Shown here in pieces: positions 2,231-50,947 of a DNA stretch of 51,092 nt (within the stretch, counting starts at the first letter, position 1; each line of letters starts with the position of its first letter). Source of the DNA: Gemmatimonadota bacterium (GTDB taxonomy: Bacteria; Gemmatimonadota; Gemmatimonadetes; Gemmatimonadales; Gemmatimonadaceae); contig QHUA01000141.1 of NCBI GenBank assembly GCA_003221805.1, forward strand, positions 1 to 51,092, read 5' to 3'. A model generated the notes under the pieces. It was not told the DNA's origin. It did no database searches and was given only the letters and a program-made list of their open reading frames with translations. Position numbers and translations under genes: made by a program.

Positions 2231-4399
2231 ATGGACTCACACTCATTCCTGCAAAACCTGGCGGTGGTGCTTTGCGTGGCCGCTGTGGCGACAGTCGTCT
2301 TCCAGCGACTGCGGCAGCCGGTCGTGTTCGGCTACCTGTTGGCGGGAATGATCATCGGCCCGCACATCCCGATTCCGCTGGTTGCGAATCCGCAAACGGT
2401 CCGTGCTCTCTCCGAGCTCGGCGTCATCCTGCTGATGTTCTCACTCGGCCTCGAGTTCAGCATTCGAAAGCTGGTGCAGGTGAGTCAGAAGGCCGGAGCA
2501 GTAGCACTCTTCGAGTGCAGCGTGACTGTGTCGGTGGGATACCTCGTTGGCCAGATGCTGGGCTTCACCCGCGTCGAAAGCATCTTTGGCGGCGCGATCG
2601 TCGGCATCTCGAGTACGACGATCATCGTGAAGGCTTTCGAGGAGCAAAACGTAAGAGGTCGCGTCACCGAGCTCGTGTTCGGAATTCTGATCATCGAGGA
2701 CCTGCTCGCAATCTTCCTGCTCACGGTCCTGACGACCATCGCGCGATCCGGCGCGATCTCACCGTCGGAGCTCGCGCTCACAGCAGTACGACTGGTGATG
2801 TTCCTCGCTCCGCTGATCGGATTCGGAATCCTGACTGTCCCGCGCGCGATCCGAGCAGTACAAAAGCTCGGCAGACCTGAAACGACACTGGTCGCAAGCA
2901 TTGGCATCTGCTTCGCCGCGGCCCTCCTCGCGCTCTCGTTTGGTTATTCCGTCGCGCTCGGCGCGTTCATCGCCGGATCGCTGATCGCCGAGTCCGGTCA
3001 TGAAACGGAGATATCGAATCTGGTGCGGCCGGTGCGCGACATGTTCGCGGCGATCTTCTTCGTGTCAGTGGGGATGATGATCGATCCGACCGCGCTGACA
3101 GAGCACTGGAGAGCCGTTTTGGCGTTGACGCTAGCGGTGATATTCGGAAAGGTGCTCGCGGTTACGGTCGGCGCCTTCCTCGCCGGTCACGGGCGCCGTA
3201 CGGCGATCAAGGCAGGAATGAGCCTGGCCCAGATCGGTGAGTTCTCGTTCATCATTGCCGGCGTTGGTGTTGCGTCCGGTGTAATCGGTGGGTGGATGTA
3301 TCCCGTGGCGATCGCGGTCTCAGCGATCACGACGCTGACGACGCCGCTCCTGATCAGACTCTCCAATAAAGCCGCGGCATCGATCGATCATTGGCTCCCG
3401 GAACCCATTCAAACGGTCGCCGCACTTTACACGTCCTGGATCGAGCGTGTGCGAAGTGCTCCACGTCCCGCGACCGAGCGCTCGGCAACCAATCGCATCA
3501 TCAGGATCATTCTGATCGACGCGGCACTCATCACGGCGCTAGTGATTGGTGTCGATGTGGAGATCGACCGCCTCAGCGTATTGGTCGGTGACATGCTCGG
3601 GATGGCACCCGACCGTGTACGGTTCGCGATCGTGCTTGTGAGCGGACTAATCGCGGCGCCGCTGATCTACGGTCTGATCACCAGTGCCAAGTCGCTGGGG
3701 AATCACCTGGCTCGTCGTGCCTTTTCCGATGCGCAAAAGGGCAAGGTCGATCCAGCCGATGCGCCGCGCCGTGCGCTGGTGATTCTGGTGCAGATCGCGG
3801 TACTGTTGGCGGTCGGGATTCCCGTCGTCGCCATCACGCAGCCCTTCTTGCCGCCGCACCAGGGTGCGTTCGTTCTTGGGCTGCTGACACTGGTGATGCT
3901 GGTCGCCCTCTGGAGAAATGCCGCCAATCTTCAGGGGCACGCGCGGGCGGGCGCGCAAATCATCGCTTCGGCGTTGGCACACCAGATGGCCTCAACCGAC
4001 GGCGTGTCCGACGAAGGAAAACTGCTGGAAGATGTGAATGCGGTGTTGCCGGGCCTCGGCGAGCCAGTGGCAATTCGCGTCGTACCGCGGAGCATCGCAG
4101 TGGGCAGAAGCTTGGCGCAGCTCAATCTGCGCGGGGCGACTGGTGCCACGGTTCTGGCGATCAAGCGCGGCGATCAGCAAATCCCGACCCCGCTCGGCCG
4201 CGAAGTAATTCACTCCGGCGATGTCGTGGCAGTCGCGGGAGCCAAGGACGCGATCTCAGTCGCCCGAGCGATTTTTTCTCCGGATCTGTCGCGGATCAAG
4301 GACGACATGGAAGGAGCGGAGATTCAAGCGGAGCTCGAGGCGCTCAATGATGCTCTTTTGACGGAGCGACCCCACAAGTCGACGAATTTTCTTCCCTGA
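2231..4399 (+). CDS. cation:proton antiporter (CPA2/Kef-type) with C-terminal RCK_C (TrkA-C) domain
   Basis: N-terminus FQRLRQPVVFGYLLAGMIIGP is followed by about 12 hydrophobic segments. The C-terminal LRGATGATVLAIKRGDQQIPTPLGREVIHSGDVVAVAG resembles TrkA-C. Confidence 0.85.
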   Translation: MDSHSFLQNLAVVLCVAAVATVVFQRLRQPVVFGYLLAGMIIGPHIPIPLVANPQTVRALSELGVILLMFSLGLEFSIRKLVQVSQKAGAVALFECSVTVSVGYLVGQMLGFTRVESIFGGAIVGISSTTIIVKAFEEQNVRGRVTELVFGILIIEDLLAIFLLTVLTTIARSGAISPSELALTAVRLVMFLAPLIGFGILTVPRAIRAVQKLGRPETTLVASIGICFAAALLALSFGYSVALGAFIAGSLIAESGHETEISNLVRPVRDMFAAIFFVSVGMMIDPTALTEHWRAVLALTLAVIFGKVLAVTVGAFLAGHGRRTAIKAGMSLAQIGEFSFIIAGVGVASGVIGGWMYPVAIAVSAITTLTTPLLIRLSNKAAASIDHWLPEPIQTVAALYTSWIERVRSAPRPATERSATNRIIRIILIDAALITALVIGVDVEIDRLSVLVGDMLGMAPDRVRFAIVLVSGLIAAPLIYGLITSAKSLGNHLARRAFSDAQKGKVDPADAPRRALVILVQIAVLLAVGIPVVAITQPFLPPHQGAFVLGLLTLVMLVALWRNAANLQGHARAGAQIIASALAHQMASTDGVSDEGKLLEDVNAVLPGLGEPVAIRVVPRSIAVGRSLAQLNLRGATGATVLAIKRGDQQIPTPLGREVIHSGDVVAVAGAKDAISVARAIFSPDLSRIKDDMEGAEIQAELEALNDALLTERPHKSTNFLP

Positions 4400-4515
4400 C
4401 TGCGGACTGCGGACTAACTGCTGCGGACTACGGACCAACGGCACTGCTGATCGACGACTGACTACGGATTGGGAGACTAACTGCGAACTGAGGACTAATT
4501 GCGAGCTGCGGACTA
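4400..4515. repeat. left arm of a long inverted repeat made of degenerate CTGCGGA heptamers
   Basis: ctgcgga|ctgcgga|ctaactg|ctgcgga|ctacgga|ccaacgg|... About 85 nt are near-identical (3 transitions) to the reverse complement of 5150-5239. The remainder is more diverged. Confidence 0.85.
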
Positions 4516-4656
4516 TGCGAGTTGCCGATTGCTGCGCGGTTCGCAGTAGGTCCGAAGTAAGTGGTTCCGGTAGATGGCTCCCACACAAGCATGGAATTGG
4601 CTTTCGGTTCCTATTTCTGATTGCGCCTCGTCGGCGGCGTAATCGCAGCTTGAGGG

Positions 4657-5070
4657 ATGACCGAGTCAGCCACGCCGGGCACGGTGTCGGAGAGCAGGGA
4701 TCCGTTGATGCGAATGCGCGCCTATCGGCTCGCTTGTGCATTAATAGCAGACGCGTGGAAGGACACCGAACAGCTAAAGCGCGATAAGGGGACTGAGAAG
4801 ATTGCGGGCCAGCTTTACGCTGCCATTGGATCGATCGGAGCGAACCTGGGAGAGGGTTACGCCCATAGCTCCGGCCGAGACCGCGCCCGGATTTTCGAAT
4901 ACGCGCTGGGCTCTGCCCGGGAAAGTATGGTTTGGTACACGGCGGCCGAGCCTATCCTTGGTGAGGCTATAGTCCGCGATCGGTTCGAGAAACTCGAAGA
5001 GATCCGTCGCATCCTCCTAGCCGTAATCCCTCGCGAGCGGGGGCGCCTAATCCGACCTTCGAACCCTTAA
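4657..5070 (+). CDS. four-helix-bundle protein (23S rRNA intervening-sequence protein family, PF05635/TIGR02436-like)
   Basis: MRAYRLACALIADAW..., IGANLGEGYAHSSGRDRARIFEYALGSARE and a C-terminal helix pattern typical of the family. The true start may be an internal Met at about codon 18-20. Confidence 0.8.
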   Translation: MTESATPGTVSESRDPLMRMRAYRLACALIADAWKDTEQLKRDKGTEKIAGQLYAAIGSIGANLGEGYAHSSGRDRARIFEYALGSARESMVWYTAAEPILGEAIVRDRFEKLEEIRRILLAVIPRERGRLIRPSNP

Positions 5071-5111
5071 TCCAACTCGGAGCACCCCGGACTTGTCGTT
5101 GTCCGGAGCCC

Positions 5112-5239
5112 GCAGTCAGTCCGCAGTCCGCAGTTAGTCCGCGGTCCGAAGTTAGTCCCCCAATCCGCAGTCAGTCGTCGATCAGCAGTGCCGTTGGTCC
5201 GCAGTCCGCAGCAGTTAGTCCGCAGTCCGCAATCCGCAG
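5112..5239. repeat. right arm of the inverted repeat (TCCGCAG heptamers)
   Basis: cgcagtcagtccgcagtccgcagttagtccgcgg...ccgttggtccgcagtccgcagcagttagtccgcagtccgcaatccgcag is the reverse complement of the left arm at 4400-4515. Confidence 0.85.
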
Positions 5240-5275
5240 AAAAAAAGGCCGGCTCGCCCGGAGCCGGCCTTTCTT
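5240..5275 (-). terminator. rho-independent terminator of the kamA operon
   Basis: AAAAAAA-GGCCGGCTC-gcccg-GAGCCGGCC-TTTCTT. On the minus strand the 9-bp stem is followed by a T7 run, 12 nt after the kamA stop. Confidence 0.75.
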
Positions 5276-5286
5276 ACGGGTGGGCC

Positions 5287-6456
5287 TTACTCGCCCGCCG
5301 CGCGCCTGCGCTTGGTTCGCCGCGGCGCCGCGGTTTTCCTGCGACTGATTGGAACGATTCCAACTTCTGCAGCCGGCTCGACTTCCGCCGGTGCTGACGG
5401 AGCCGGACGCGGCTGCTTGTAAACGAAACGCTTTCCTTCGTAATTCCGGAAGACCACCTCGTCGTCCGTGATCGACTCCAGGTATTCCGGCAGCAGCGGC
5501 ACCTTGCCTCCGCCTCCCGGCGAGTCGATGACGAACTGCGGTACCGCCAGGCCCGACGTCCAGCCGCGCAGCGCTTGCATGATCTCGAGACCCTTCTGAA
5601 CCGTGGTGCGGAAGTGCTCTCCGCCCGCGACCTGGTCCGCCATGAATATGTAGTAGGGCCGAACGCGCGCCTTGAGCAGCTCGTGCATCAACTTCATCAT
5701 CACCTTCGGGTCGTCATTGACGCCCTTGAGGAGGACGGTTTGGCAACCGAGTGACACGCCGGCCTTGGACAGTCGGTCGAGCGAGGCCACCGCCGCCGGG
5801 GTCAGCTCGCTCGGGTGATTGAAGTGCGTGTTCATGAAGATCGGGTGGTACTTCTGCACCATCTCGCAGAACTCGGGCGTGATGCGCTCGGGCAGGTGCG
5901 AGGTGATGCGGCTCCCGATGCGAATGATCTCGATGTGGGGAATCGCGCGCAGCTGCTGGAACAGGTACTCCAGCCGCCGATCGCTCAACATCATCGGATC
6001 GCCGCCACTCAGGATGACGTCGCGGATCTCGGTGTGCTCGCGCAGATACTGGAACGCCGACTCGTACTGGTTGAGCGGGATCTTCTCCGGATCGCCGACC
6101 TTTCTGCGCCGGGTGCAAAAGCGGCAGTAAGTAGCGCAGACCGGACTTACCAGAAAAAGAGCGCGGTCCGGATAGCGATGGGTAATGTTCGGCACCGGCG
6201 AGTCGCCGTCCTCATCGAGCGAATCGATAACGCCGTCGACGACATGGAGCTCCTCGACGGTCGGGATGTACTGGTTCCACATCGGATCGCCGACTTCCTT
6301 GATCTGCTCCAGCGCCGCTGGCGTGATGCGCATCTGGAAGTTGTCGAAAGCCGGCTTCAGCCCCTCGACGTCGATGACGTCGTGCCCGAACTTGTCGGCC
6401 AGCTTCTCGAGGGTCGCGATGCTCTGATCCCTGATGATTTGCTGCCAATCGCTCAT
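5287..6456 (-). CDS. kamA: lysine 2,3-aminomutase family radical SAM enzyme (KamA/AblA-like)
   Basis: CATYCRFCTRR (CxxxCxxC cluster), SGGDPMML and SPGGGGKVP (PLP-Lys region). A basic C-terminal tail is present. Confidence 0.9.
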   Translation of the reverse strand: MSDWQQIIRDQSIATLEKLADKFGHDVIDVEGLKPAFDNFQMRITPAALEQIKEVGDPMWNQYIPTVEELHVVDGVIDSLDEDGDSPVPNITHRYPDRALFLVSPVCATYCRFCTRRRKVGDPEKIPLNQYESAFQYLREHTEIRDVILSGGDPMMLSDRRLEYLFQQLRAIPHIEIIRIGSRITSHLPERITPEFCEMVQKYHPIFMNTHFNHPSELTPAAVASLDRLSKAGVSLGCQTVLLKGVNDDPKVMMKLMHELLKARVRPYYIFMADQVAGGEHFRTTVQKGLEIMQALRGWTSGLAVPQFVIDSPGGGGKVPLLPEYLESITDDEVVFRNYEGKRFVYKQPRPAPSAPAEVEPAAEVGIVPISRRKTAAPRRTKRRRAAGE

Positions 6457-6583: not shown

Positions 6584-7597
6584 TCAACCGAGTCCTGAGA
6601 GCCGAAGCGTTTTGACCCAACGCTCCTGGTAGTTGTCGCCGCGCTTGGCGATCGCCTGATCGCAAATTTTGCGAATGAGATCCGAGAAGCTCAGCGTGGC
6701 GACTCCCGCCATGCGAGCGAGACCCGCCGTTGGCGAGATATCCGGGTTGGCGTTCACTTCGAGGAGCCATGGCCGGCCCGAGTGATCGATGCGGAAATCG
6801 CAGCGGCCGTACGCCTCGCCACCCACCACGCTCCAGGCGGCGCGGGCGATGGAGACGATCTCGTTGGCGAGATCCTCCGACAGATCGGCGGGGCAATTCG
6901 GCTTCGCGCCGAGGTCCTCGTCACTGCCCGTCTCCCACTTCGACCGATACGACACGATGTGCCACATTCCCTGCGGCATCTGGCCGAAGTCGATCTCGGC
7001 AATCGGGAGAATCTCGTCTCCCAGAATCCCGACGTTGACCTCGCGCCCGTCGACGAAGCGCTGGATGAGCACTTCGTCCCAGCCATCGAACATTGCCTGA
7101 ACTCTGGCGTTGAGCGCCCGCATGCTTCTCACGACCGAGCGCTGCTCGATTCCAACCGACGCATCTTCCGCCACCGGCTTGCAGATGGCGGGAAATCCGA
7201 CGCTCGAGACTTCCTCGCCGCGCCGGACGTGAGTCCACCGCGGTACCGGTAAGCCGGCACGATCGAGAACTCCGTTGACGACGTTCTTTCTCAAGGTGAG
7301 GCCTGTCGTCCAGCTCGAGCTGCCGGTGAATGGGATGCCAAGGAGCTCGAGCACCGATATGACCATCGGCTCGTAAATCGCCTCCCCATCGATGCCCTCG
7401 ACGAGATTGAAGATCAGGTCGAACTTTCCTCTTCGGACGCGCTCGACCCAGCGGCCATCGGTGGTGACGGGGACGCGAACGACCTCCGGTGCCCAGTCGA
7501 GGAGAGCGCTCTCCACCGCTTCGATGGAGTCGAGCAGCTGAACCTCCGGTGCTTTGCCGAGGGCCGAGAGACCGTCGAACAACAATGCAATTTTCAT
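6584..7597 (-). CDS. D-alanine--D-alanine ligase-family ATP-grasp ligase
   Basis: MKIALLFDG..., LELLGIPFTGSSS, FPAICKPVAEDASVGI, IQRFVDGREVNVGILG, GRCDFRID..GRPWLLEVNANPDIS: Ddl-type ATP-grasp layout. Confidence 0.8.
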   Translation of the reverse strand: MKIALLFDGLSALGKAPEVQLLDSIEAVESALLDWAPEVVRVPVTTDGRWVERVRRGKFDLIFNLVEGIDGEAIYEPMVISVLELLGIPFTGSSSWTTGLTLRKNVVNGVLDRAGLPVPRWTHVRRGEEVSSVGFPAICKPVAEDASVGIEQRSVVRSMRALNARVQAMFDGWDEVLIQRFVDGREVNVGILGDEILPIAEIDFGQMPQGMWHIVSYRSKWETGSDEDLGAKPNCPADLSEDLANEIVSIARAAWSVVGGEAYGRCDFRIDHSGRPWLLEVNANPDISPTAGLARMAGVATLSFSDLIRKICDQAIAKRGDNYQERWVKTLRLSGLG

Positions 7598-18237: not shown

Positions 18238-18897
18238 CTACCTTCTTTTCGCTTTGCCCGAAGCTTTCGGCTTTGATTTCGTCGCGGCTTTCGCTGTGTG
18301 TTTCTTCGCCGCGGGTTTCATAGTCGGCTTTTTGGCAGCGGGCTTTTTGGCCGGAGCTGAATGCTTCGCGGTGGCGTGCTTGGCTGGTGCTGGTGCGTGT
18401 CTAACGGGCGCGGCGTGACCGGCGTGCGCCGTGTGGCTGGCGTGCGCTGTGTGACTGGCATGTGCTGAGTGTGCTGAGTGCGTTGCGTGAGACGTCGTCT
18501 CGGCGGGACCTCTTGCGCCAAGTGAGGCGGGTGGTGCCGGTGGCTTCCGCTTGGCGTGCGACGCTTCGACCTCACGCATCAGCTTGTCGGCTTCCTCTTG
18601 CGTCATCTGGCCGCGACGAACCATGTACTGCAGGAGATCACGGGCGCTCTCGATGACGAGGCCGGTAAGTCCGGCAGCGGCGCCGATCACGTCCTTCATC
18701 GCTGCGGCCATCTTGCTTCCGGCCTCGAGGCTGATCTCATGCGCCTTGGCCGCCATTTCGGCGACCGTATCCTTTACGTCGGCGCCACGGTGCCCCGGGC
18801 TGCGCTTCGGCGGGACCGGCGGCGGCGTCACGGGTGCGCCAACGGCTGGGGCAGGTGCTGTAGCAGTAGCAGCTGCGGTCTTTTCTTTATCTATCAT
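18238..18897 (-). CDS. phasin-like (COG3937-type) protein with a His/Ala repeat and a Lys/Ala/Pro-rich histone H1-like tail
   Basis: The central LLQYMVRRGQMTQEEADKLMREV resembles PHA-granule regulator/phasin helices. It is followed by SHATHSAHSAHASHTAHASHTAHAGHA, then AKKPAAKKPTMKPAAKKHTAKAATKSKPKASGKAKRR. Confidence 0.6.
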   Translation of the reverse strand: MIDKEKTAAATATAPAPAVGAPVTPPPVPPKRSPGHRGADVKDTVAEMAAKAHEISLEAGSKMAAAMKDVIGAAAGLTGLVIESARDLLQYMVRRGQMTQEEADKLMREVEASHAKRKPPAPPASLGARGPAETTSHATHSAHSAHASHTAHASHTAHAGHAAPVRHAPAPAKHATAKHSAPAKKPAAKKPTMKPAAKKHTAKAATKSKPKASGKAKRR

Positions 18898-25550: not shown

Positions 25551-25694
25551 AGCGGGAAGCGGGAAGCGAGTAACGAAGAGCGGTCAGCGGGCACGGGTAC
25601 GGAAAAGGTGTAGCGCCCCACCTTCGGTGTGAGTCAAAGCAATCCGCTTCCCGCTGGCCGTGCCCGTACCCTCCCGCTTCCCGCTTCCCGCTTC
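25551..25694. repeat. ORF-less hairpin element built from GCGGGAA / TTCCCGC heptamers
   Basis: Left arm: gcgggaa|gcgggaa|gcgagta|acgaaga|gcggtca|gcgggca|cgggtac. Right arm: ccgcttc|ccgctgg|ccgtgcc|cgtaccc|tcccgct|tcccgct|tcccgct. The outer 17 nt and an inner 9 nt are exactly complementary. Confidence 0.75.
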
Positions 25695-26702: not shown

Positions 26703-26886
26703 GACAACTACCTGCTAGGCGCTGACCGCTGCTGTCGCTGACCGATTACCGCTGCAGACGACGGGACAGATCACACAAGCGCTAAGGAAACTGCAGCAGT
26801 TGCTTAGAGCGCCAAGGAGATCTGTCTAGTCGTCTGCAGCGCTCAGCGCTTAGCGCTAAAGCGGTCAGCGCCCAGCAGGTGTTGTC
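26703..26886. repeat. 184-nt near-complete palindrome (ORF-less hairpin element)
   Basis: gacaactacctgctaggcgctgaccgct (26703-26730) pairs with agcggtcagcgcccagcaggtgttgtc (26860-26886). gctgcagacgacgggacagatc pairs with gatctgtctagtcgtctgcagc. The centre aactgc-a-gcagtt lies at about 26796. An extra half-copy lies at 26670-26696. Confidence 0.8.
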
Positions 26887-30774: not shown

Positions 30775-31659
30775 ATGGCGCGAATTCCCGTAACCAAGAC
30801 GCCGAAGGTCTATGTCGGTGGCCAGTTTATTCGCTCGGAGAGCGGGCGAGTATTTCCTGTGCGGGCAGCGGGAAGCGGGAAGCGGGAAGCGGGGCTGCTC
30901 GGCAACATTCCTCAGTGCACCAGAAAGGATCTCCGTAATTCCGTAGAAGCGGCGGCGAAGGCCGGACCCGACTGGGCGCAGCGCACTCCTTACAACCGCG
31001 GGCAGATTCTCTACCGGCTCGGTGAGATGCTGGAGTCGCGGAGCGAGGAGATGGCGGACGCGTTGGTAGTGTCCGGTGCATCGACAAAAGCTGCCGCCAG
31101 TAAAGAAGTCGCAGCGAGCGTCGATCGACTGATCTACTACGCGGGCTGGTCGGACAAGTACGAGCAGGTGCTTGGCAACACGAACCCGGTCGCGGGCCCG
31201 TTCTTCAACTTCACCGTGGCGGAGCCGATGGGTATCATCGGGATCATCGCCGATGACAAGTTTCCGCTGCTCGGGTTATTGAGCCAGATCGCGCCCGTAA
31301 TCATTGCCGGCAATACCTGCGTCTGCCTGGCGTCGCAGTCTTTCCCGTATCCCGCAATCGTGCTCGGCGAGCTGCTGGCGGTCTCCGATCTACCCGGGGG
31401 CGTCGTGAATATCCTGACCGGGTTCAGAAAGGAGCTGGTGCCGACGTTTGCCACCCACACGCACATTCGCGGGCTGAACGCGGTCGTCAATCAGGAAGAG
31501 AAAAAGCAGCTGCAGCTCGGCGCGGCGGAGAGCATCAAGAGGGTACGGGCACGCAAGCGCGACGATGGGATCGATTGGGCCGGCGAGAAGTCGCAGAGCG
31601 TCTACGAGATCCGCGACTTCATCGAGTTCAAGACTACCTGGCACCCAATCGGGGCCTGA
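30775..31659 (+). CDS. half-size aldehyde-dehydrogenase-like protein lacking the catalytic domain
   Basis: The start abuts the ALDH stop (TAGATG). It aligns to the ALDH N-terminal/NAD-binding part (IAPVIIAGNTCVCLAS.., LPGGVVNILTG). It has LQLG where ELGG is expected, and no Cys loop. After about 40 more residues it ends with an ALDH-like C-terminal strand (FIEFKTTW). Confidence 0.7.
   Translation: MARIPVTKTPKVYVGGQFIRSESGRVFPVRAAGSGKREAGLLGNIPQCTRKDLRNSVEAAAKAGPDWAQRTPYNRGQILYRLGEMLESRSEEMADALVVSGASTKAAASKEVAASVDRLIYYAGWSDKYEQVLGNTNPVAGPFFNFTVAEPMGIIGIIADDKFPLLGLLSQIAPVIIAGNTCVCLASQSFPYPAIVLGELLAVSDLPGGVVNILTGFRKELVPTFATHTHIRGLNAVVNQEEKKQLQLGAAESIKRVRARKRDDGIDWAGEKSQSVYEIRDFIEFKTTWHPIGA
30861..30895. 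repeat. tandem heptamer repeat (GCGGGAA-type, 5 units) inside the CDS
   Basis: gcgggca gcgggaa gcgggaa gcgggaa gcggggc, encoding AAGSGKREAG. This is the same unit as the hairpin arms at 25552-25568. Confidence 0.9.
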
Positions 31660-46445: not shown

Positions 46446-46904
46446 TTAGCGATTCCCGCCGCCCCCGCCACCACCGGGCGGACGACCACCGCCACCGCCG
46501 CCGCCTCCCATTCCTCCACCACCTTGTCCGCCCCCACCACCGCCGGGGCGTCCGCCTCCTCCACCACCTTGACCGCCGCCGCCACCACCACCGCGTCCAC
46601 CTCCGCCACCACCCTGTCCGCCGCCACCCCCTCCGCCGCCCCCGCCTCCACCTTGTCCACCACCGCCACCGGGTGGACGACCGCCGCCACCTTGTCCACC
46701 ACCACCGCCACCACCGGGCTTACCACCACCGCCTTGTCCACCACCGCCACCACCTGGGCGTCCGCCTCCGCCACCACCCTGGCCGCCGGAAGATCCACCG
46801 CCGCCCATGCCGCCACCTCCACCGCCTGGACCGCCACGGCCGCCACCTCCACCACCCTGGCCGCCTTTATCCTTGGCACCAAAGTTCTCTTCCGTACCAG
46901 CCAT
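46446..46904 (-). CDS. extremely glycine-rich protein (about 152 aa)
   Basis: The ATG at 46904 is preceded by GGAGGG at a 7-nt spacing. MAGTEENFGAKDKGG is followed by G-runs punctuated by Q, R/K-P and M. A clean terminator follows. The other frames of this low-complexity DNA lack both an RBS and a terminator relationship. Confidence 0.6.
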   Translation of the reverse strand: MAGTEENFGAKDKGGQGGGGGGRGGPGGGGGGMGGGGSSGGQGGGGGGRPGGGGGGQGGGGKPGGGGGGGQGGGGRPPGGGGGQGGGGGGGGGGGGQGGGGGGRGGGGGGGQGGGGGGRPGGGGGGQGGGGMGGGGGGGGRPPGGGGGGGNR

Positions 46905-49155: not shown

Positions 49156-49746
49156 GTGAACGAGCTGATCCGCGGCGAGGAAAGGCTGGCGGCGATCCTC
49201 TCCCATCCCGCGATCGCGAAGCTTCGCGCATCGCTGAGCTCGCGACGGCCGGTGGAAGCAGAGGAAGAACCCGGCGTTAGCAAAGCTGCGGTCGCACAGT
49301 TGCTTTTCATCAAGCGGGCGGACTATCCAGGCGATCCATGGAGTGGCCAGGTCGCATTTCCAGGCGGACGTGAGGAGGCTGGCGACGCGTCGCTTCAGGA
49401 AACGGCGACGCGCGAGACGCGCGAAGAAACCGGGATCGATCTGACGCGTGAGGGGATGGTGATTGGCGTGCTCGACGATCTCCGCCCGCGCACTGTCAGA
49501 CTGCCCGCCGTCGTCGTTCGTCCCTTCGTTGCAGTTCTCGAGCGGAGCGAGCCCCTGAGATTAAGCTCGGAGGTTGCGCTCGCTTTCTGGATTCCGTTCG
49601 GTACCCTCGCCCACAAGGAAGCATGGAGCGAGGATACCGTCTTCGCCCGCGGAGTGCAGATCAACGCCCGCGTCTTTCGGCACGAAGATCACGTCATCTG
49701 GGGGATGACGGAACGAATTCTGGCACAATTGCTCGAGCTACTCTGA
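49156..49746 (+). CDS. Nudix hydrolase, CoA pyrophosphatase-like
   Basis: Nudix box GGREEAGDASLQETATRETREETGI is preceded by LLFIKRADYPGDPWSGQVAFPGG (NudL/PCD1-type upstream motif). GTG start 1 nt after the previous stop. Confidence 0.85.
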   Translation: MNELIRGEERLAAILSHPAIAKLRASLSSRRPVEAEEEPGVSKAAVAQLLFIKRADYPGDPWSGQVAFPGGREEAGDASLQETATRETREETGIDLTREGMVIGVLDDLRPRTVRLPAVVVRPFVAVLERSEPLRLSSEVALAFWIPFGTLAHKEAWSEDTVFARGVQINARVFRHEDHVIWGMTERILAQLLELL

Positions 49747-49774
49747 TGATAAGCCACTCAAACGCGTAAGTGAT

Positions 49775-49935
49775 TCCGAACTGCGAGCTAACTGCGAGTT
49801 ACGAACCTGCTGCGAGCTGCGAACGACTGCGAAGCGAGAGCTATGCAGCGCGTGACGGCCGTTTGCTCGCACCTCGCAATTAGCTCGCAGTTCGCAACTA
49901 GTTCGCAGCTCGCAATCAGTTTGCGATCCGCAATC
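49775..49935. repeat. ORF-less hairpin element built from CTGCGA(A/G) / TCGCAG heptamers
   Basis: Left: aactgcg|agctaac|tgcgagt|tacgaac|ctgctgc|gagctgc|gaacgac|tgcgaag. Right: ctcgcaattagctcgcagttcgcaactagttcgcagctcgcaatcag. tgcgagctgcgaac (49811-49824) is exactly complementary to gttcgcagctcgca (49901-49914). Confidence 0.7.
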
Positions 49936-49968: not shown

Positions 49969-50947
49969 TTACCGATCCAGCTCAAGTACTACAAACGACC
50001 CTGGAATCATCGGCGGCCTCGGCCGCGGACGATCCGCAGTTGCTGCGGGCGTCGGCCCAAAGTCGGCAGTCACCGTGTAAAGCCGGTGCGTTTTCGGATT
50101 CACCGCCATGGTGCGCGCGCCACGCTGTGTCGGAACTGTCTCGACGACGCTGAATTTGTCCGGCGTGTCCTCGTGCACGACGGTGATCGTGCCTTCGCCG
50201 TTCGAGGTGAAGGCGAGTCCAGTGCCGGGATCGAAGCCGGCAGCATCGACTCCTGACCCGACCGCCGGACTGGCGATGACTTTGCCCGAGCGCATGTCCA
50301 CAATCGCCATTGTCTTGTTGCCGCATCCGGCGAACAGTCTCTTGTTGACGCGATCGATCGCCAAACCACTCGGCTCCTCACACGGCGCCAGCGGCCAACG
50401 TGCCTCCACGGCGAGGGTCTTCGGATCGAAGACGGCGATCATGCTCTTGTCCTCGAGGTTCGCGTAAACCTTTCCGCCGTCACTGACCGCCGTCTCCGGT
50501 CGGCGTTGCAGATCGACGGTTCCGACGACCGTTCCATTGGTAGCGTCCAGCGCCGTCGAGTTAGATCGGATTGCGGCCCGGAACCTTGACGACGCCGATC
50601 GGGGCCAGCGTTTTGTAATCGAAGATGGTCACGCTCGAATCCCGGCCATTGCTGGTGAATCCGCGATTGAGCTCCGGGGCGAGGGCGACGCCGTGAATTC
50701 CGGGAGTGTTGGGGACATCACCGACGACGGAATTCGTGGCGAGATCGATCACCATGGCGTGCGTTCCACGCGAGAGGAAGAGCCGATTGCTGGCAGTGTC
50801 GATCGTCATGTAGTCCCACCCACCCTCACCACCGGCTGGGATCTTGTGGATGACGTGATAGCCTGGCGCCTGGGCTTCGACGAACGGCGGAACGACGAGC
50901 GTTGCCCCGGCGAGAATGCCGAGCGCGGCAAAATTTTTCGATCTCAC
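49969..50947 (-). pseudogene. YncE-like (YVTN) seven-bladed beta-propeller protein, disrupted by an internal deletion plus frameshift
   Basis: ORF 50561-50947 (signal peptide, blades 1-2) ends ...VKVPGRNPI*. Another frame reads RSNSTALDATNGTVVGTVDL...KVYANLEDKSMIAVFDPKTL into ORF 49969-50442. Blade 3 lacks about 15 residues (the ...A.D....R.F..NG core) that are present in every other blade. Confidence 0.65.

Follow-up and report, generated by a model that had tools for sequence, protein, structure and literature searches.

Intervening sequences (IVSs) in bacterial 23S ribosomal RNA (rRNA) genes include a large type, found in Leptospira, Coxiella and Brucella, that carries an open reading frame (ORF) of the S23p family in its loop. 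The Leptospira 23S rRNA IVS with its S23p ORF was reportedly described by Ralph and McClelland in 1993. To our knowledge, both a function and an origin for the large IVSs and the S23p ORF have been lacking for about 30 years. Here we describe a relative outside rRNA: a cassette at positions 4400-5239 of a 51,092-nucleotide stretch of Gemmatimonadaceae DNA (contig QHUA01000141.1; hereafter the window), in which one gene of this four-helix-bundle family lies between two inverted arrays of heptamers. We favor the reading, with a probability of roughly 0.6, that 4400-5239 is an IVS-type gene cassette located outside rRNA and that transfer, flipping, replacement and decay affect it as a whole. This reading draws on the anatomy of the locus, the association of gene and arms across the family, polymorphism of the site, flips and replacements, purifying selection on the protein, and restored complementarity of the arms.

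In Coxiella burnetii, the 23S IVS contains an S23p ORF and a 28-bp terminal stem that is cut by RNase III (Warrier et al. 2016, PMC4990558). Its 5' region holds two to three tandem GACAGAT heptamers whose number varies between strains, and excision by RNase III is established for the Coxiella, Salmonella and Leptospira IVSs (PMC4990558). The window cassette resembles these rRNA IVSs in carrying the same protein family in its loop, in sense orientation, and in having terminal inverted repeats that form a stem, the Coxiella heptamers likewise lying in the 5' part of the stem. Both are sporadically present among relatives, and horizontal transfer is suspected. However, the window cassette is flanked by two protein genes, both with their 3' ends toward it, and so lacks the defining feature of an IVS, a location in rRNA. 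Its arms span 115-128 nt as opposed to ∼28 bp in Coxiella, and its ORF is intact and under purifying selection, whereas the Coxiella ORF is decaying. The design of a heptamer stem plus ORF is nonetheless common to rRNA IVSs and these cassettes.

Other systems also invite comparison. Among the longer simple repeats of bacterial genomes, heptamers form the commonest class, and we know of no explanation for them. RAYT genes are typically flanked by inverted repetitive extragenic palindromic (REP) sequences, and Avd (PDB 4DWL, 8UB7), from diversity-generating retroelements (DGRs), is a pentamer that works with structured RNA. As with REP/RAYT pairs, the genes described here are framed by inverted short repeats that also occur without the gene. 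Unlike in those pairs, the window protein is a small helical bundle unrelated to HUH/Y1 transposases, and the repeats are tandem heptamer arrays and not single palindromes, with gene-less arrays being rare in the sampled Gemmatimonadaceae DNA. Avd shares the four-helix-bundle fold, but the neighboring genes in the window lack a reverse transcriptase domain, no template and variable repeat (TR/VR) is present here, and the similarity is structural only.

Rehm et al. (2015, PMC4692102) counted 186 arrays of the Xanthomonas GGGAATC heptamer, 70 convergent inverted pairs among them; the number of such pairs per genome is 70-75. That paper treats the repeats as formers of G-quadruplexes, and searching its text by terms revealed no reference to the gene family. 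An inverted pair of these very heptamers frames the orthologue of Xcc0516, with the G-rich arm first, as in the window, although the heptamer differs from that of the window, the arms are only ∼30 nt long (30-38 nt), and the location is inside the accB-accC operon. Genes termed 23S_rRNA_IVP have also been reported inside cas operons (Zhang, Doak & Ye 2014, PMC3936711). These family members lie between unrelated operon genes, which agrees with cassettes landing between genes; flanking repeats are not mentioned in the passages that a term search retrieved.

Thus, IVSs with S23p ORFs, two crystal structures, Avd, and the inverted heptamer pairs of Xanthomonas are each known separately. Our literature search, whose coverage excluded most subscription journals, found no account of four-helix-bundle genes that lie outside rRNA between inverted heptamer arrays, nor any that links these observations, and the cross-phylum framing appears to be undescribed.

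Anatomy of the cassette

An earlier note on this DNA had taken the 840-nt space between an antiporter gene and kamA for a single IVS-like structure outside rRNA, in which arms of degenerate heptamers enclose one four-helix-bundle gene. This description holds. The gap is one symmetric structure, with two reverse-complementary heptamer arms around a single ORF (Table 1). To its left lies a gene for a CPA2-type cation/proton antiporter (ORF 2231-4399, + strand; stop codon 4397-4399), and to its right lies kamA, which encodes a KamA-family radical-SAM aminomutase (5287-6456, - strand). The structure takes up precisely the whole gap, beginning right after the antiporter stop and ending at the A-run of the kamA terminator hairpin, as judged both from the sequence and from comparison with empty orthologous sites. 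No Rfam family, rRNA included, was found in the cassette or the window; the sub-threshold matches correspond to the terminator hairpin.

A repeat search delimits the inverted repeat to arms of 128 nt (4387-4514 and 5118-5245) that are 88% complementary. Without gaps, 4401-4482 pairs with 5150-5231 over 82 nt with three mismatches, all of which place A in the left arm opposite C in the right (4430/5202, 4464/5168 and 4474/5158), as the earlier note had observed. A CTGCGGACTGCGGA dimer with no more than two mismatches occurs 12 times in the window, compared with 0.76 expected, and nine of the 12 occurrences fall inside the two arms. Autocorrelation of the arms peaks at lag 7 (0.49-0.51) and lag 18 (0.43-0.45), and thus the super-unit of the arms is 7+7+4, as in CTGCGGA CTGCGGA CTAA.

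A long, stable stem is predicted on both strands, with folding energies of -458.4 kcal/mol (z = -18.0) for the + strand and -467.5 kcal/mol (z = -17.2) for the - strand; the 9 kcal/mol advantage of the - strand derives solely from the three A/C arm mismatches. The cassette has a GC content of 59.6%, nearly equal to the 60.7% of the window, and therefore its composition gives no hint of a recent foreign origin.

Within the loop, the sequence GAGGG (4652-4656) is located 2 nt before the ATG of the four-helix-bundle gene, and the ATG column is conserved among relatives. No sigma-70 consensus is present within 4200-5450. The conserved inner block further upstream (Table 1) has, as judged from its sequence, a promoter-like arrangement that is without a canonical -10 element.

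We know of two crystal structures for the protein family and of no role for it outside DGR Avd. The product of ORF 4657-5070 scores above the curated cut-offs of both PF05635 (39.2 bits; cut-off 33.8) and TIGR02436 (51.6 bits; cut-off 24). An AF2 model (pLDDT 87) contains helices at residues 14-41, 47-69, 73-101 and 103-129. The PDB structures closest to the model are 2RLD and 2GSC, of the 'S23 ribosomal protein' family (TM 0.68-0.89, rmsd 1.6-2.5), and the sequence profile matches 2GSC with an E value of 1e-4. The Avd chains of 8UB7 also resemble the model (TM 0.65-0.80), a likeness that is structural only. A basic C-terminal tail, IPRERxRxIRP, is invariant, and dN/dS is 0.04-0.18 in ten pairs; the protein is kept by purifying selection. 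Because 2GSC is a pentamer (cited in PMC4990558), the protein is probably a toroidal pentamer as well. As such a ring it most likely binds nucleic acid, and the nucleic acid that it binds could plausibly be the cassette's own heptamer arrays.

The resemblance to Avd raises the alternative that the gene is the Avd accessory gene of a DGR, or else belongs to an integron-type cassette. PF05635 is indeed the commonest Pfam family adjoining DGR reverse transcriptases (PMC10053308). However, no reverse transcriptase, TR/VR pair, integrase or attC-like single site is found within 10 kb, and the repeats that flank the gene, one on each side, are heptamer arrays and not a TR/VR pair, which effectively refutes this explanation at this locus. 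No PADLOC or PHROG model matches the protein, and no member of its subfamily was found in IMG/VR. The cassette is neither a classical transposon or miniature inverted-repeat transposable element (MITE), nor a DGR, nor a known defense or phage gene.

Table 1. Coordinates of the cassette, its right-hand boundary and a related hairpin in the window
Feature	Position	Strand	Remarks
Left (5') arm, G-rich heptamer array	4400-4514		CTGCGGA / CTACGGA / CTGAGGA units with CTAA-type spacers and an 18-nt super-period; begins directly after the antiporter stop
Inner C-type segment ATTGCTGCGCGGTTCGCAGTAGGTC	4528-4552		From repeat search; local pairing possible with inner left arm 4475-4499
Conserved inner 5' block GAATTGgcT ... 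∼18 nt ... TGATTgcG	4594-4625	+	∼35-60 nt before the start codon; from alignment of 44 loci
Four-helix-bundle gene (S23p / 23S-rRNA-IVS-protein / Avd-like)	4657-5070	+	137 aa
Right (3') arm, C-rich heptamer array	5101-5239		TCCGCAG units; reverse complement of the left arm from 5118 on; ends at the kamA terminator A-run
kamA intrinsic terminator hairpin	5241-5275	-	Outside the cassette; marks its right boundary; found in the same form where the orthologous junction is empty
Second, gene-less hairpin of the same heptamer family	49770-49935		CTGCGAG / CTGCGAA units; ∼70-nt arms, short loop, G-rich arm first; fold z = -4.5

On the - strand, two ATP-grasp genes of the D-Ala-D-Ala-ligase type (Pfam) precede kamA (6584-7597 and beyond). 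Together with kamA they may form a small beta-lysine-related pathway that is unrelated to the cassette.

Heptamer framing across the protein family

A scan of one genome per species revealed 534 relatives of the subfamily, from which 80 loci were taken and 75 were scored for framing. For each locus, 700 nt of upstream sequence was aligned with the reverse complement of 600 nt of downstream sequence, and 209 randomly placed pseudo-genes in the same DNA served as controls. The median inverted-repeat score at the 75 relatives is 80, compared with 23.5 ± 2.7 (maximum 34) for the controls, and 68 of the 75 relatives score above the control maximum.

Relatives in species-representative genomes come almost entirely from metagenome-assembled genomes (MAGs) of Gemmatimonadaceae. 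Their arms are 50-200 nt long, consist of CTGCGGA-, CTGCGAA- or CTGAGGA-type units, and have periods of 7 and 18. The 5' array stops ∼80-170 nt short of the start codon, and the 3' array starts 0-110 nt past the stop. Arms of different cassettes are homologous yet diverged, with a common core of GGACCAACGGCA ... GGATTGGGAGACTAACTGCGGA.

The framing recurs in at least five bacterial phyla, with heptamers that are specific to each clade. Arms in Chloroflexota, Verrucomicrobiota, Spartobacteria and Binatia are composed of GTGAAAC, GTAAAAC, GTGATGC, GCGTATT, TACTGCA and other units, and here the arrays abut the stop and start codons of neighboring genes. Cassettes are found in many gene contexts, and their arrays typically fill the space up to the neighboring stop or start codons. 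No rRNA context was found for 15 related loci without obvious flanking ORFs. Within one protein clade, whose arms are of the CGTGAAA type, members from Chloroflexota, Verrucomicrobiota and Binatia are 64-84% identical to one another, which indicates that gene and arms were horizontally transferred together. The heptamer type follows the protein clade, not the host phylum.

The family member with a solved structure, Xcc0516 (PDB 2GSC), fits the same pattern. Its orthologues in Xanthomonas citri, X. sacchari and Rhodanobacter are located between accB and accC, with inverted GGGAATC / GGGATTC arrays on either side that are 30-38 nt long and 84-90% complementary, the G-rich arm first. At these loci (L171, 2483-2933, and L172-L175) the left array begins just past the accB stop and the right one runs up to the base preceding the accC start; the left array also codes for the first residues of the four-helix-bundle protein. 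Chloroflexota cassettes show features of their own. In six of them (L076, L077, L078, L085, L087 and L089) the apparent upstream gene ends in ...VVGE*, and the start of an apparent ABC-type ATPase (MEAFIQCENLVKIYK...) follows the cassette. These cassettes possess an additional C-type array on the inner side, which folds into a local hairpin immediately behind the 5' arm, a possible alternative pairing; the inner arrays of L076, L077, L078, L085 and L087 are comparable to the inner segment of the window.

The arm carrying G-rich units comes first in 45 of 55 loci. We had considered whether this reflects a polarity of the arms relative to the gene. An inverted repeat looks identical from both strands, however, and the order is therefore a property of the repeat itself. 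Elsewhere, array composition can change abruptly at arm edges. Simple arrays of other kinds, namely (CAGCTAT)n, (GTCAGTCCC/GGTCAGTCCC)n and (TTCGCAG)n, border cassettes in L036 (∼2825-2900), in the left flanks of L053 and L056, and in the right flank of L060. Most homologues lie on contigs of ∼1 kb, and contigs end inside or just past an arm in L005, L010, L016, L020, L023, L031, L037, L046, L055, L062 and L070. The arms thus break short-read assemblies, and cassettes are under-counted in MAGs.

The window itself contains a second structure of the same heptamer family (Table 1), which sits between the convergent ORFs 49156-49746 (+) and 49969-50442 (-) and is probably a decayed or miniature cassette. 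Other heptamer arrays in the window are (TCCCGCT)x3.3 at 25672-25694, its reverse complement (GCGGGAA)x4.7 5.2 kb away at 30861-30893, and (CAGCGCT)x5.6 at 26837-26876; an 18-mer is repeated 3.2 times at 18415-18471. There is no second four-helix-bundle gene in the window, and none of these four arrays flanks one. The region 46492-46865 holds nested CCACCGCC-type tandem repeats with periods of 12-45 and presumably encodes, on one of the strands, a low-complexity stretch rich in Gly and Pro. A REP-like picture of many dispersed copies was also considered, but CTGCGGA arrays are rare in 548 kb of related DNA, and such a picture therefore does not apply in this lineage.

Polymorphism, flips and arm complementarity

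A metagenome scan with KamA yielded 80 orthologous loci, and the antiporter gene still adjoins kamA in 25 of them. In the relatives compared at this junction, KamA is 92-98% identical. The junction occurs in empty, remnant, gene-less and differently filled states. It is empty in L100, L106, L108, L118, L125 and L130/131, where only 3-30 nt separate the stop codon from the terminator. Trace remnants consist of 'TCCGC' alone in L104 and of 28 nt resembling the inner segment in L092. A solo right arm that carries the window's private unit, GTCGATCAGCAGTGC, is present in L096, and a gene-less hairpin of the same repeat type in L095. The earlier note's proposal hinged on recurrence of the arms, bracketing of related genes, a stable stem and variation at this site, and all four are observed.

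The closest relative, L091, whose KamA is 98% and whose antiporter is 97% identical, likewise carries a cassette at this point, but with the gene inverted. Its flanks are 93-95% identical to the window, its arms 70-73% and its gene 66%, with the break falling precisely at the edges of the cassette. A long BLAST high-scoring segment pair had given the impression that the arms were orthologous and the loop swapped, which was rejected when the arms were aligned separately. The idea of a loop module that hops into existing hairpins was rejected on the same grounds, given that the arms of L091 are themselves only 70-73% identical and thus the whole cassette differs. The exact protein is encoded on 14 soil-metagenome contigs, and in ten of ten examined the cassette occupies the same site in the same orientation and is 98.9-99.9% identical.

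An unrelated palindromic element of 130-570 nt, with ends of approximately CGCGCGGGGTCGGCGCGGGGTGTCCTC ... GAGGATGCCCTCGCCCGACTGACCGGCG, occupies the junction in 12 relatives (L093, L102, L105, L107, L110-L112, L114, L123, L124, L126 and L127). This element is absent from the window and has no Rfam match. The antiporter-kamA junction is a hot spot for hairpin elements. Inserts of ∼2.3 kb separate kamA from the antiporter gene in L101, L122 and L129.

Comparison of flanks among the 80 genome loci revealed four further orthologous sites that hold cassettes in both orientations. At these sites the four-helix-bundle proteins are 63-93% identical, whereas the flanking proteins are 74-99% identical. 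Proteins that share a site differ from one another as much as randomly chosen paralogues do, in keeping with other cassettes having replaced the original ones. One neighborhood of this kind has a SAM_alpha riboswitch (RF00521, 42.9 bits) adjoining the cassette of L031 at 2575-2650 (-), upstream of a gene of ∼850-900 aa; the same orthologous site is found in L011, L012, L013, L025, L026, L030 and L034, in both orientations.

Because both orientations exist at five orthologous sites, the antiporter-kamA junction included, and because perfect stretches of the arms are long enough for homologous recombination, the cassette might be an invertible switch that, in the manner of phase variation, exposes the gene to transcription from outside in one orientation and silences it in the other. 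We consider this very improbable. The ten population contigs all show one orientation, no invertase gene lies nearby, the accB-accC cassettes keep one orientation in three genera, and the conserved block in the loop suggests that the gene has its own promoter. Furthermore, flipped versions have diverged strongly (66% identity of the gene in L091, 63-89% of the protein at other sites), such that the flips are old events or replacements and not a fast switch.

Changes in the arms provide a second view of these dynamics. In an alignment of the arm cores of 18 cassettes, 43 of 58 pairs have changed on both sides with pairing kept. Three close pairs of cassettes exhibit 0 mirrored and 29 one-sided arm differences, compared with 20 mirrored and 29 one-sided in three more distant pairs. 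Mismatches thus arise on one arm and are later matched or removed, and complementarity is restored over time. Among arm mismatches at 53 loci, 125 are of the sense G:U type and 113 of the antisense type (p = 0.48), and 209 (47%) are transversions. Consequently, the hint in the earlier note that the three A/C mismatches of the window, as U-G wobbles, point to a minus-strand transcript is not upheld by the family, and no strand can be named. The mismatch pattern is what is expected from gene conversion between arms, and recombination between arms is independently suggested by the flips. Selection on a duplex intolerant of wobble pairs would fit the pattern as well.

It is also possible, though in our estimation unlikely, that the cassette is a self-regulating RNA-protein module for which mobility is unnecessary. 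The arms would then be protein-binding arrays: a ring-shaped pentamer would bind tandem heptamers on its own transcript, much as TRAP wraps repeated triplets around a protein ring, while pairing of the 5' arm with the inner C-type segment or with the 3' arm would set translation, stability or RNase III cleavage. Such a module would account for the tracking of heptamer type with protein clade and not host phylum, for the invariant basic tail and the purifying selection, and for the alternative local pairing partners of the 5' arm. Avd, a structural relative, acts in an RNA-protein complex (8UB7), and the shortest arms comprise ∼4-5 heptamers (28-38 nt, in Coxiella and Xanthomonadales), although five units per pentamer is suggestive numerology. 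Conversely, in Gemmatimonadaceae 80-170 nt separate the 5' array from the start codon, a distance too great for the ribosome-binding site to be simply occluded. The mismatches lack the G:U tolerance typical of RNA, and gene-less hairpins persist without the protein gene in cis. On its own, moreover, this explanation leaves presence/absence, flips and replacement unaccounted for.

How a mobile cassette might work and what it implies

The unit is one four-helix-bundle gene plus two inverted arrays of clade-specific heptamers, and we propose that it is inherited and exchanged whole. At the DNA level, the long inverted arms would make the cassette recombinogenic: it flips, its arms become re-matched, paralogous cassettes take its place, and it decays to gene-less hairpins or solo arms. 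At the RNA level, the arms of any transcript that reads through the entire cassette would pair as a stem of ∼115-128 bp. By analogy with the literature on rRNA IVSs, cutting of this stem by an RNase III-type activity might excise the insert from host transcripts. Excision at the RNA level would explain why cassettes are tolerated tight against stop and start codons, in operons and in rRNA.

Several observations weigh against the interpretation as an IVS-type mobile cassette. Comparison with empty sites shows no duplicated target bases (the flanks read CCCTGA| and |AAAAAAAGG), no near-identical second copy was found, with the next relatives being at most 78% identical, and no gene for a transposase, integrase or reverse transcriptase lies within 10 kb on either side. 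Active transposition is therefore unsupported. Several cassette sites are conserved across species, such that the pattern could largely be one of vertical inheritance, loss and homologous replacement. The promoter-like block is inside the loop, and the gene's own mRNA may thus lack the 5' arm and never form the stem. With one-sided G-U states being rare in the arm-core alignment, no G:U bias, and nearly half of the mismatches being transversions, nothing points positively to selection on an RNA stem; arm-to-arm conversion at the DNA level would yield the same pattern of complementarity. The earlier note had suggested a mobile or formerly mobile cassette, or an RNA-processing module. The polymorphic junction, the varied contexts and the cross-phylum clade with 64-84% identity fit mobility, present or past, but they do not demonstrate active transposition. 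With the exception of its strand hint, the interpretation in that note largely holds.

The same observations bear on whether the cassette is a DNA transposon or MITE-like element that is moved by a transposase encoded elsewhere (REP/RAYT-like or related to insertion sequences), with the four-helix-bundle gene as a passenger. Terminal inverted repeats, intergenic locations adjoining terminators, gene-less miniature versions, and the use of the same junction by the unrelated palindromic element in other relatives are all in keeping with such an element. Nonetheless, we regard it as improbable. Besides the missing target-site duplication, the arms are private to each cassette and differ even within one genome (L025, L038 and L041), and identical copies exist only at the same site. 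The only ORF encodes a 137-aa helical protein, and no transposase Pfam family is found within 10 kb on either side. Nor does the gene behave as optional cargo, given its framing at 68 of 75 loci, its association with arms across phyla, and the purifying selection that acts on it.

Returning to the IVS-type cassette, a broader and more tentative proposal is that the pentamer of the four-helix-bundle (S23p/IVSP) family is a dedicated partner of tandem heptamers, with each clade recognizing and spreading or maintaining its own heptamer. We consider this wider idea speculative and, at present, rather unlikely. Such pairing would be a common cause of heptamer repeat families (GGGAATC in Xanthomonas and perhaps the short tandemly repeated repetitive (STRR)-type sequences of cyanobacteria), of gene-less hairpins, and of the large 23S rRNA IVSs. 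If it is true, rRNA IVSs would be cassettes that landed in rRNA helices, and the relationship would be analogous to the pairing of RAYTs with REPs.

The locus and its relatives link rRNA IVSs, the S23p family and heptamer repeats that have lacked an explanation. The same unit of a gene within a heptamer hairpin is found between genes, in operons such as accB-accC and transporter operons, and, according to the literature, in rRNA. Tractable carriers such as Xanthomonas make heptamer binding, RNase III cutting and effects on accBC directly approachable.

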